Below are positions 38,666-41,868 of a stretch of DNA of 64,000 nt, one piece after another (the first letter of the stretch is position 1; each line of letters opens with the position of its first letter). Below the pieces are notes generated by a model that saw only the letters and a list, made by a program, of their open reading frames with translations, made no database searches and was not told the DNA's origin. The stretch is taken from the IMG/VR virus record IMGVR_UViG_3300030109_004085, positions 1-64,000 of that record, one strand, 5' to 3'. The translations under genes and the position numbers were made by a program. This DNA is from a virus.

Positions 38666-39790
38666 TTATTCTTCTTTATCTACGTCGTAGAAATCGCCTG
38701 CGTCTCCTTCGCGATTATCAAACTTCTTGATAATCTCCTCATCCATAATCTTAAATACACGATTTCTAAACTTATCATCTTCCAACTTATCTAACCAATG
38801 GGCTGACTGGAACTTTTCTTCTGTGCCATCTGCATAAACTAATGAATACCAAGCTCCTGCTTGCTTCAAATTGTCGGAGATCTTGATTGCCTCCAACCAA
38901 CTTTCCCTATCTTGCACCCCGATGTCTTCTGAGCCCCAAAGAATTTTGAAGGCGCAGTTTCTACCGGCAGTTCCAAATCGTGACTTCTCCAACTTAACTT
39001 TTACTTCTGAACCAATGCGGAAGCCACTTTCATCTACAATAAAGGCAGCCTTTGCCTTTCTTCCTGTCAGCCAAATGCGCAGGGAGTACACATAATGCAT
39101 AGACTTGCCGCCCGGAGTGATATAGGGCGTGGTCATAGCAATAATACGCGCATTTGGACCCTGTGGGATATTCGTCTTTAACTGATTAAGAACCAAGAAC
39201 GCAGACTGTGTGTTTGCGATTGGAACCGTCAGCTTTGACATTCCCTTTGATAGAACACGAGCCTTGACGGCCATCGTAGAGTTCGGGTTGAAATCTCCCT
39301 CTACATCTGAGACCGTTGGAGTCAGAGCAAGTGAATCCCAAATGAATAGGGTTCGGGTCGCTCCTGAATCCAAAACTGCCTCAACAGTCTCAAGAACATG
39401 TTCCACGCTCTGTGCCTGAACATAAATAAGGTTTTCTAAATCACATCCCGTACGCTGTAAGAAGCTCGGGTCAATAGCAGACTCTGCGTCCATATAAACA
39501 ACATTCATACCCATCTTCTGGGCGTTTGCAGCAGTCTGCGCAGCCATAAAAGACTTTCCTGTTGCTTCAAGTCCAGCAATCTCCGTAAACTTGCCGACCG
39601 GGATTCCAGCCAACTGTCCTCGGCAAATGATAGAGTCAAGCCAGCGCGAACCGGTTGGAATCCATTCTTTTACCTCAGTTGGATTTTCTTGATTTAGATT
39701 GTGGGCACACTCCACCCCTGAAGTCTTATTAATGAGACTTCGTAGACCGTCAATCGAAATCTTGCCAGCCTTTGATTTACTCTTCGCCAT
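38666..39790 (-). CDS. recA: RecA/UvsX recombinase
   Basis: IPTGS..LD, GLEATGKS, DAE, WDS, NQ, TPGG. Confidence 0.92.
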   Translation of the reverse strand: MAKSKSKAGKISIDGLRSLINKTSGVECAHNLNQENPTEVKEWIPTGSRWLDSIICRGQLAGIPVGKFTEIAGLEATGKSFMAAQTAANAQKMGMNVVYMDAESAIDPSFLQRTGCDLENLIYVQAQSVEHVLETVEAVLDSGATRTLFIWDSLALTPTVSDVEGDFNPNSTMAVKARVLSKGMSKLTVPIANTQSAFLVLNQLKTNIPQGPNARIIAMTTPYITPGGKSMHYVYSLRIWLTGRKAKAAFIVDESGFRIGSEVKVKLEKSRFGTAGRNCAFKILWGSEDIGVQDRESWLEAIKISDNLKQAGAWYSLVYADGTEEKFQSAHWLDKLEDDKFRNRVFKIMDEEIIKKFDNREGDAGDFYDVDKEE

Positions 39791-40131: not shown

Positions 40132-40662
40132 CTAGTCGAACGTTAGGGTGCCGTTTGCAGTCTGGACAGAGACATTAAAGCCGGACACAAAACTATCTAC
40201 ATCAAAATACTTGAAACGACCGTCAGTGTCAAGCTCTGCGTTAAGAATATCTCCAAAACGAACCTTGACCGCGGTGGAAATATCACAACGGCCGCGCTTG
40301 TAGTCATACTGCTCGGTTGAATACTCTAGAGAATACTCTCCCTCGTAGATGGTCTCCACAAGACGTTCAGTAATGAAATCCTGGAAATACTCCTCTCCTC
40401 GCTCATACTCATCAAGCTCATTATTAGCACGCATCTCATTAAGAATATCGTTGCCTTCACTTGGCTCGCCGTAGGTGCTGTACACCGGAACACCAGATGC
40501 AAGCAGTCCTGCAAGCATACTAGCAGTCGCCGTCTCAGCAACCGAATCAGCAACATACCCATCATTGATATGCCACACATCATTACCCTCTGTGAAAGAG
40601 AGGGTTACAAAACTATCCTCTGACATCTCCAGCTTCTTTAGCTGGTTAATAAAATCACTCAT
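40132..40662 (-). CDS. acidic hypothetical protein
   Basis: GGGAG SD; D/E-rich. Confidence 0.7.
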   Translation of the reverse strand: MSDFINQLKKLEMSEDSFVTLSFTEGNDVWHINDGYVADSVAETATASMLAGLLASGVPVYSTYGEPSEGNDILNEMRANNELDEYERGEEYFQDFITERLVETIYEGEYSLEYSTEQYDYKRGRCDISTAVKVRFGDILNAELDTDGRFKYFDVDSFVSGFNVSVQTANGTLTFD

Positions 40663-40690
40663 TTTAAACTCCCTTTGTTAAGTGAAAAAT

Positions 40691-40720
40691 GGGGCACCTG
40701 TAACCCGTGCCCCCCTGCGG
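40691..40720 (-). promoter_or_regulatory. structured RNA element, copy B
   Basis: CCGCAGG-GGGGCAC-GGGUUACAG-GUGCCCC followed by AUUUUU. Confidence 0.65.
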
Positions 40721-40730
40721 TTGGTAGAGT

Positions 40731-40919
40731 TTACCTAGCGTTCTTAGTCTCTTGGACCTCAACGCGAAGCTCTTGAGCAAGCGTCTTTACTTCTTGCATA
40801 GCCTTGCGAACACGAGTTCCGGCGGCATTGTTTCCAGTGCCGAAGAACTTCTCGTGATCTTCGCGAGTCTGTTCAAGAAGCGTAATCAGCGTCTCAAGTC
40901 GGTTCGTTGTAGTAGTCAT
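40731..40919 (-). CDS. histone H1-like (Hc1-family) small protein
   Basis: D.EKF...GN.AAGTRVRK.MQE.K.LAQELR. Confidence 0.75.
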   Translation of the reverse strand: MTTTTNRLETLITLLEQTREDHEKFFGTGNNAAGTRVRKAMQEVKTLAQELRVEVQETKNAR

Positions 40920-40940
40920 AACTCTTCCTTTCTAAATTGT

Positions 40941-40971
40941 GAGACCCCTGTAACCCCGGGCCTCCCTGCGG
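40941..40971 (-). promoter_or_regulatory. structured RNA element, copy A
   Basis: CCGCAGG-GAGGCCC-GGGGUUACAG-GGGUCUC. Confidence 0.65.
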
Positions 40972-41022
40972 AGGGGATGTTTTCCAATTTTGCCTGAACT
41001 GCAAGGACTTGCTTTTCAAGGT

Positions 41023-41050
41023 ATTTTATCATTCTACGGTAAGAATGCAA
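41023..41050 (-). promoter_or_regulatory. sigma70-type promoter
   Basis: TTGCAT-N16-TAAAAT, TG extension. Confidence 0.55.
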
Positions 41051-41091
41051 CTCCTTGACAAGAAAGTCTTGTTCTTGCTCCATGGACATTT

Positions 41092-41868
41092 TTACAGAGA
41101 ACCCAACTCTGCGAATGCGGCATCGACAGAGTTAGTCTCACTGTCGCTGTTCTTATTGCCGTACTTCGTGGTCTCACTGCTAATCGCCTCTGGATCCTCG
41201 ACCTGCGAGTTAATAAAATTATCAAGCATCGTTTGGACATCAGAAGTCGACTTGCGCTCAAATAGTCCCCCGAATTCGGGAATACCATCAAGAAGCTCAG
41301 CGCACTTATCTGGAGTTAAATCCTCACAGAGAGCGGATGAACGTCGTCGTGGGACCAACTTAGTCTGGGGGAACGACGCTCCTGGGGGCTTACCGTAAGT
41401 AAGAGTCAGATCAGTGCCTGCCTCCGTATCGGTAATATCACCGTACTCAGGGTTGAGCACGAGAGAAAGAAGGTTTTCGTAAGCCATCTTGCCATAACCC
41501 CAGATACGAACTCCGAGATTTTCCTCGCCGCGGACCATCACCGGGGAGAAGAAACGCTGACGGACGAAGAGAGACTTCGCAGTCTTCTTGGAATGTTCGT
41601 CGTTGTTGTTTACACCCTCACGCCATAGCTGAGAAGCAAAATCGCACACAGGACAGTCATCACCGAAGTTACGCTTCGGACAAAGGAAGCCGCCCTTTTC
41701 TACATTGTAATGGAAATGCATTTCCTTGAAGGGGTCTCCATCAGCAGTCGGAACAATACGAATGTCCTGATCACCTTCTGAAGGCCGCCAGAAAACGGAA
41801 TCTCCACCTTTTCCCTCACCTCGCAAGGCTGAGAGCTTTTCTCGCATTTTGTCTAGATTAATACCCAT
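41092..41868 (-). CDS. single-stranded DNA-binding protein (T4 gp32-like)
   Basis: FW.P......IR..P, H..C...CPVC Zn site, DITD...G.D, acidic tail ending AFAEL. Confidence 0.8.
   Translation of the reverse strand: MGINLDKMREKLSALRGEGKGGDSVFWRPSEGDQDIRIVPTADGDPFKEMHFHYNVEKGGFLCPKRNFGDDCPVCDFASQLWREGVNNNDEHSKKTAKSLFVRQRFFSPVMVRGEENLGVRIWGYGKMAYENLLSLVLNPEYGDITDTEAGTDLTLTYGKPPGASFPQTKLVPRRRSSALCEDLTPDKCAELLDGIPEFGGLFERKSTSDVQTMLDNFINSQVEDPEAISSETTKYGNKNSDSETNSVDAAFAELGSL

Follow-up and report, generated by a model that had tools for sequence, protein, structure and literature searches.

A widespread, uncatalogued family of predicted RNA pseudoknots with a fixed address in the gp32-to-uvsX interval of uncultured phages

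Two copies of a small RNA element flank a histone H1-like (Hc1-like) gene in the window, as the whole 64,000-nucleotide stretch of viral DNA analysed here will be called (IMG/VR record IMGVR_UViG_3300030109_004085, positions 1 to 64,000). They belong to a widespread family of RNA pseudoknots that is absent from the catalogue and whose members occupy one defined place in the genome, between the gene for a single-strand DNA-binding protein (SSB) like gp32 and the gene for a recombinase like UvsX. To judge from sequence comparison, the element appears to punctuate the gp32-to-uvsX transcription unit of uncultured marine phages of ~180 kb; a marine origin is indicated by the run labels and by a single near-identical contig. 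No close relative was found among cultured phages, for which blastn returned nothing and the best tblastn match for UvsX shows 32% identity.

All genes of this region of the window are on the minus strand, in the order gp32-like SSB, 57-aa ORF, upstream element, Hc1-like gene, downstream element, 176-aa ORF, two small ORFs and the UvsX/RecA-like gene (Table 1), the last forming the far end of a variable gp32-to-uvsX interval. The preliminary description, made from the letters of the window, called the flanked gene histone-H1-like and the SSB gp32-like, and Pfam agrees on both (Hc1 and gp32). It also took the SSB gene to be the next gene upstream of the repeat. The gp32 match stands, but a 57-aa ORF that was not mentioned lies between the two and extends through the upstream copy. 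The final 20 codons of this ORF run through the pseudoknot, its stop codon forms an ATGA overlap with the Hc1 start, and its predicted product is coiled-coil-like. Its first 37 codons are an insertion specific to the window, without counterpart when ~200 related loci were searched by tblastn; only the part overlapping the element was matched there, bar weak matches in three loci (L057, L067 and L113; 38% over residues 18-56, spanning their own element too). Relatives have the element directly behind the gp32 stop codon, with no 57-aa ORF stretch. An RNA-library contig from a relative likewise joins gp32 directly to the element, and a second such contig carries a relative's element, both coming from low-depth assemblies. 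If the 57-aa ORF is translated, ribosomes would unfold the upstream copy. Homologues of the Hc1-like gene with flanking elements were found in many relatives.

Table 1. Positions of the two element copies and of the neighbouring genes in the window
Feature	Position	Strand	Remarks
gp32-like single-strand DNA-binding protein gene	41092..41868	-	Pfam gp32, E 6.5e-13; PHROG 1192
57-aa ORF	40916..41089	-	between gp32 and upstream copy
Pseudoknot element, upstream copy	40941..40972	-	before Hc1-like gene; covariance model R1 61 bits, E 6.2e-15; predicted S1, U (40972) and CC (40971-40970) with loop GGG; L1, GCAGG 40969-40965; S2, GAGGCCC 40964-40958, loop 40957-40948, GGGUCUC 40947-40941
Hc1-like (histone H1-like) gene, 62 aa	40731..40919	-	Pfam PF07432, E 7.1e-21; an element on each side
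Pseudoknot element, downstream copy	40691..40722	-	after Hc1-like gene; covariance model R1 60.7 bits, E 7.5e-15; predicted S1, AA (40722-40721) and CC (40720-40719) with loop GGUU; L1, GCAGG 40718-40714; S2, GGGGCAC 40713-40707, loop 40706-40698, GUGCCCC 40697-40691
A/U-rich spacer behind downstream copy	40663..40690	-	A, UUUUU and C at 40690-40684; SD GGGAG 40673-40669
176-aa ORF	40132..40662	-	directly behind downstream copy; no Pfam or PHROG match
UvsX/RecA-like recombinase gene	38666..39790	-	Pfam RecA, E 1.4e-37; PHROG 97

Both copies consist, on the minus strand, of CCGCAGG, the 5' half of a 7-bp stem, the loop G(G)GGUUACAG and the 3' half of the stem. The downstream copy reads AA-CCGCAGG-GGGGCAC-GGGUUACAG-GUGCCCC-AUUUUUC from 40722 to 40684, and the upstream copy reads U-CCGCAGG-GAGGCCC-GGGGUUACAG-GGGUCUC from 40972 to 40941. 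The duplication reported at first, with a spacing of 250 bp, is real; it is 250 nt from loop to loop and 251 nt from one CCGCAGG box to the other, because one loop is longer by a single base. Equally sound is the claim of compensated stems, each of which has seven pairs, three of them differing between the copies (G-C to A-U, G-C to G-U and A-U to C-G). The start codons put at 21-28 nt behind the copies lie 21 nt (ATG of the Hc1-like gene, 40919) and 28 nt (ATG of the 176-aa ORF, 40662) away. The AUUUUU described behind one copy is present, and only the downstream copy has it. Folding energy alone is unremarkable (z of -1.7 and +0.7), and support for the fold therefore rests on comparative data. 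A covariance-model search of the whole virus record (83.9 kb, representing only 46% of the genome) found no further copy.

The nearest comparisons are with close relatives whose Hc1 proteins are ~85-97% identical. There the orthologous stems are GGGGCAC/GUGCCCC, GAGGCAC/GUGCCUC, GAGGCCC/GGGCCUC and GAGGCAU/AUGUCUC. The stem changes are compensatory, and each of the two window copies is conserved orthologously. A UU(U/A)UCAC box behind the downstream copy (40684-40690) is invariant in six close relatives; across all elements, TCAC occurs within 18 nt behind 16%, against 4% of random windows.

A scan of IMG/VR with an exact pattern located at least 119 loci, with 126 occurrences among the matches listed. 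Of these viral matches, 117 of 126 form a hairpin with a complementary 7-nt stem. The same pattern run on prokaryote genomes gave mostly chance matches and served as a negative control only: five of 78 fetched matches form the hairpin, four of them on two phage-like MAG contigs. The motif is thus far beyond chance. The pattern used to collect much of the alignment prescribes both flank and loop, and the conservation of these two parts was judged instead from a set of loci anchored on gp32, in which variants of flank and loop occur and the architecture is kept. The element or a close variant is present in 51 of the 77 usable loci of that set. The loop and the CCGCAGG flank, on whose conservation in related genomes the preliminary description staked its reading, recur in related phages.

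The 7-bp hairpin, S2, is 99.1% paired over 92 distinct sequences among the matches listed, and at four of its seven pairs both partners vary. Pairing and covariation as high as this were seen in none of the shuffle and slide controls. In S2 there are 55 G.U pairs but not a single A.C pair, and the fold therefore belongs to the RNA of the sense strand; a DNA-level hairpin and a structure on the opposite strand are ruled out by the same count. The structured RNA proposed at first is borne out: it belongs to the coding strand and is conserved, recurring in more than 110 IMG/VR contigs with its stem 99% paired.

The second helix, S1, makes the element, as far as covariation tells, an H-type pseudoknot. 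Pairing of an upstream AACC or AUCCCC with the loop had been suggested for the window copies; the idea is backed by covariation and holds in a refined form, in which the helix is (N-1)CC with GG(X4), often lengthened by an A-U pair. Of 126 distinct elements, 115 have a base -1 able to pair with position 4 of the loop (Fisher 4e-20, a value that ignores kinship). Base -1 is A in 29 of the 32 elements whose loop has GGGU, and C or U in 85 of the 94 whose loop has GGGG. The A-U state is found in ~7 clades of the gp32 tree. A test corrected for kinship retains only three well-supported independent pairs and, being underpowered, does not reach significance. The predicted order of parts is S1a, L1 (GCAGG), S2a, a spacer G, S1b, L3 ((U)UACAG) and S2b, with a total size of about 34-36 nt.

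In a second allele, CCACAGG...AGGGUUAUCAG, base 3 of the flank and base 1 of the loop have changed jointly. These two positions are G/G in 102 elements, A/A in 21 and mixed in three, and they would face each other at the helix junction. One variant (L164:3409-3474) has an extra hairpin, GGACCC-UAAA-GGGGUC, in the middle of the loop and retains the GGGG at the 5' side of the loop and the AUAG at its 3' side. The loops GCAGG and ACAG are invariant, and the stem, xRGGCMY, is half-fixed.

The element was not recognised as a known riboswitch when it was first described, and the comparison with Rfam gave no match to any known RNA family. At gathering thresholds the window yields five tRNAs elsewhere and nothing at the elements, and at E up to 10 the stretch from 40600 to 41100 yields one spurious 12.7-bit match on the opposite strand. 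Literature searches with the loop sequence returned unrelated primer matches only. Five tRNA genes are clustered at 922-1880 of the window, on the minus strand. The conserved unpaired parts of the element, CC(A)ACCGCAGG ... GGUUAC (40698-40722 of the window, minus strand), match the reverse complement of helix 45 in the 16S rRNA of an enterobacterium (Morganella, L336). The counterpart there, CCAACCGCAGG-N9-GGTTAC, has a spacing that fits the form of the element with the 10-nt loop; one Vibrio 16S sequence lacks the helix 45 match, and when the 16S sequence was shuffled 20000 times the spaced motif turned up in 9. This likeness was spotted after the fact and is probably a coincidence.

The element is locus-specific. 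Genomes of 181-185 kb that are 98-100% complete have no more than one or two strict copies. Counting variants, there are up to four copies per ~180-kb genome, all of them in the gp32-uvsX interval and within about 0.2-1.4 kb of each other. A dispersed repeat or general regulon signal was considered and rejected because there are only one or two strict copies per genome; other matches to CCGCAGG or GGGTTACAG in the window are chance occurrences inside genes. Among the matches listed, the element starts 5-19 nt past a stop codon in 95 of 101 cases, and the gene upstream encodes the gp32-like SSB in 54 of 101 and Hc1 in 12. From the end of the stem to the next start codon there are 16-35 nt. The commonest next gene is uvsX (31 of 104 elements among the matches listed), followed by the 176-aa protein (19) and an FKBP-like protein (12), the rest being small membrane, lipoprotein or acidic proteins. 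Eight of the 98 copies among the matches listed have no start codon nearby, yet they too lie behind gp32. The tie to the Hc1-like gene that was drawn from the window therefore proves not to be specific: copies follow gp32 and each inserted small gene.

A gp32 homologue is present in 103 motif-bearing loci among the matches listed, with 37-90% identity to that of the window. Within this set, which was selected by the motif, the element is unchanged across phages whose gp32 proteins are only 37-60% identical. In six loci that have a relative of gp32 but lack the element, a classic GC-rich tetraloop terminator occupies the same slot, and other gp32-anchored loci have nothing there, gp32 abutting uvsX. 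In some relatives the slot holds a different H-type pseudoknot, predicted as AAGCC, 1-3 nt, a 7-nt S2a, GGCUU, UGUA/AUAAA and S2b, which lies directly behind the gp32 stop codon in eight loci. It is unrelated to the first class, has an A/U-rich tail of the AUCAUU type, and covaries in S2 (CCCUCC/GGAGGG, CUCCCC/GGGGAG and ACUGGUC/GGCCAGU); a scan for this class gave mostly chance matches and six genuine distinct instances. A tRNA gene lies directly behind the post-gp32 terminator or pseudoknot in three loci, one of which (L163) is among the six with a classic terminator.

Several genomes carry arrays of three or four elements spaced about 210-380 nt apart, with one small ORF between each. They are L057, L067 and L113 (four copies) and a MAG contig, L286 (three copies); CCGCAGG and CCACAGG alleles co-occur within one array. 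The small genes beside the copies are variable and include Hc1, the 176-aa ORF, the FKBP-like gene, lipoproteins and membrane proteins. Such an arrangement recalls the PeSLs of T4-type phages, stem-loops found in hyperplastic regions and linked to insertions and deletions (PMC2839356, PMC4122927). Like the PeSLs, the elements are repeated intergenic stem-loops of one orientation around small variable ORFs in a hyperplastic region, and they are plausible substrates for modular shuffling. The repeat, of 31-35 nt, could then be mainly homology for recombination that shuffles small genes between gp32 and uvsX, the fold being an ordinary terminator carried as a passenger. The gp32-uvsX interval is indeed hyperplastic and each variable small gene adjoins a copy, with as many as four copies at spacings of 208-275 nt, as does the 57-aa ORF insertion; moreover, 16 of 67 within-genome copy pairs have identical stems, against 6% between genomes. 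As a main function, however, this seems distinctly unlikely. Homology leaves unexplained the S1/S2 covariation, the bias of G.U over A.C and loops that are invariant at 40% gp32 identity, and the two window copies differ at three stem pairs, each copy being conserved orthologously. PeSLs also contain an early promoter. None was found here, and most spacers (16-35 nt) are too short for one; at the window elements a search for sigma-70-type promoters gave no consistent -10/-35 boxes, and the sole nearby match overlaps a start codon. Further differences are that the element is a pseudoknot with invariant loops maintained by covariation, and that it keeps to one interval in each genome, yet its conservation extends to very distant phages and not to one genome pair only. 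A role in cassette shuffling probably coexists with the function at the 3' end of messages to which the following evidence points.

Behind the stem, among the matches listed, the base at +1 is A in 72 of 98 elements, T makes up 58-71% at positions +4 to +7, and from +2 to +7 there is hardly any G; 63 of the 98 have at least four T in the eight nucleotides from +2 to +9. Promoter-like boxes follow the element in two loci in which the next gene is farther off. The T-rich tail, the canonical terminators of relatives and these boxes together argue for a terminator-like or 3'-end function. Efficient termination is excluded because most next genes have no promoter room and several copies can precede uvsX; with up to four serial copies ahead of this essential gene, any termination must be leaky or regulated. 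The preliminary description had set plain terminators against a novel regulatory RNA. Ordinary terminators do occupy the same slot in relatives, and a terminator-like role thereby becomes part of the likely function and not a reason to dismiss the element.

The resemblance to intrinsic terminators is partial. Shared with them are a G+C-rich hairpin a few bases past a stop codon, in many copies with a U-rich tract behind it, and the position that canonical terminators hold in relatives. Against this stand the large loop of fixed sequence, the conserved 5' flank that pairs with it, the short stem, the many copies without a U-run, and the start of the next gene 16-35 nt on, too close for a promoter to fit in between. 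The upstream window copy, like about a third of the family, has no convincing U-tract. As an intrinsic terminator, a stem of 7 bp closing a loop of 9-10 nt would be weak, and a terminator consensus scan called neither window copy because the loop exceeds 8 nt.

The reading favoured here, tentatively and with somewhat less than even confidence, is that of a pseudoknot read by a factor, serving as both leaky terminator and exonuclease block. We infer that the pseudoknot and its A/U-rich tail would together let some transcription through and hold off 3' exonucleases. The upstream message, chiefly that of the SSB, would thereby be defined and stabilised, and read-through into the next cistron would be metered. 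The invariant loops and the half-fixed stem would be what a candidate trans-acting factor reads. By analogy with T4, the gp32-like protein is the obvious candidate, its putative connection with this RNA being suggested by adjacency and by the T4 precedent.

That precedent also supplies a different explanation. The T4 gene 32 operator consists of a 5' pseudoknot of ~28 nt and then an unstructured region with UUAAA/UAAA repeats that holds the RBS; this region is >40 nt long, and the frame of segG overlaps the pseudoknot (PMC535899). Surplus gp32-like SSB, or another protein, might by the same token nucleate on the pseudoknot described here, spread in the 3' direction along the A/U-rich, supposedly unstructured spacer and cover the SD of the next gene, whether uvsX or an inserted gene, so coupling recombinase synthesis to the level of SSB. 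Several features would suit such an operator. As in T4 and RB69 (PMC535899, PMC3014915), a compact H-type pseudoknot accompanies the SSB gene within a T4-like replication module, an A/U-rich, presumably unstructured stretch leads into the RBS, and the pseudoknot can be overlapped by the frame of a neighbour, here the 57-aa ORF and in T4 segG. The link to this gp32 family is tight, and the low, locus-specific copy number is typical of feedback internal to an operon. The spacer of 16-35 nt up to the SD and ATG is poor in G; compared with other leaders it has 31% against 22% T, 15% against 23% G, and 2.4 against 1.5 TAAA per 100 nt.

Nevertheless, an operator of this kind is rather doubtful. The element stands 3' of gene 32 and 5' of uvsX, Hc1 and others, whereas the 34-nt leader of gp32 itself has no such motif. 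The preliminary description had invoked the T4 case for the window; the association with gp32 proves systematic, so that the precedent fits better than could be seen from the window, but copies downstream of gp32 cannot form an autogenous operator of the T4 type. The spacer is shorter than the >40 nt of T4, and its enrichment in TAAA is small. Further differences from the T4 and RB69 operator are the one to four copies, the terminator-like, usually U-rich tail, and the absence of sequence similarity, binding of SSB being here only putative. Eight of the 98 copies stand behind gp32 without a close start codon, and the plain terminators in the slot of relatives suggest that the slot needs a 3' signal.

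A further reading, which we regard as unlikely, would join the SSB to such a signal. The gp32-like protein would recognise or melt the 3' structure of its own mRNA, alter termination or decay, and so gate translation of the recombinase and of the inserted genes. If this were true, one fold would provide both feedback on the SSB:UvsX ratio and a docking slot for incoming genes, a mode of SSB sensing that would be previously undescribed.

Like lambda-type nut sites (boxA and boxB), the element has a linear box beside a hairpin with a conserved loop and a variable, covarying stem, in the sense RNA of an early phage operon. It differs in that the flank pairs with the loop in a pseudoknot and in that copies lie between cistrons, not at the start of the operon; to our knowledge no N-like protein is known in this phage lineage. 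A site at which an endoribonuclease cuts polycistronic early RNA into single-gene messages, leaving the pseudoknot as protection at one end, would account for the regular spacing, the intercistronic position and the single orientation, and invariant single-stranded loops would suit recognition of a specific sequence. T7 RNase III sites and Cas6 repeats are precedents for processing that leaves structured RNA ends. The stem is too short for RNase III, however, and the Pfam and PHROG matches and the lists of neighbours offer no candidate nuclease gene that is consistently nearby, which makes a processing site improbable.

The preliminary description had allowed for a ligand sensor. A small riboswitch, that is, a ligand-sensing pseudoknot with its aptamer embedded in a terminator, would have the compact pseudoknot, invariant loop bases and U-rich tail seen here. 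In one subclade, moreover, a hairpin that would sequester the SD, CUCC-N4-6-GGAG, abuts the 3' strand of the stem. It lies before uvsX in eight loci and overlaps that strand by 1-2 bases, and the subclade is the one with the most divergent gp32 (~40% identity). Most copies, however, have no alternative pairing that competes with the fold and hence no switching structure, the genes downstream are heterogeneous and functionally unrelated, Rfam gives no match even at E up to 10, and relatives have plain terminators or nothing instead. A ligand sensor is consequently very improbable.

The element is a variant of the known intercistronic control elements of phages, and its role is probably to set the message and protein output of the next gene. 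Among uncultured phages of the ocean it defines a new RNA family that is abundant and very strongly conserved, with a fixed address beside the genes for SSB and recombinase and a three-dimensional architecture that can be tested. Its size of ~35 nt and its natural series of compensatory changes make it well suited to structural and biochemical work. The classic link between a pseudoknot and the SSB of T4 gene 32 is extended to a distant lineage, in which the RNA lies behind the gene, comes in several copies and serves other genes. The arrangement also hints at a way in which accessory genes, the histone-like Hc1 among them, may acquire expression control upon insertion.
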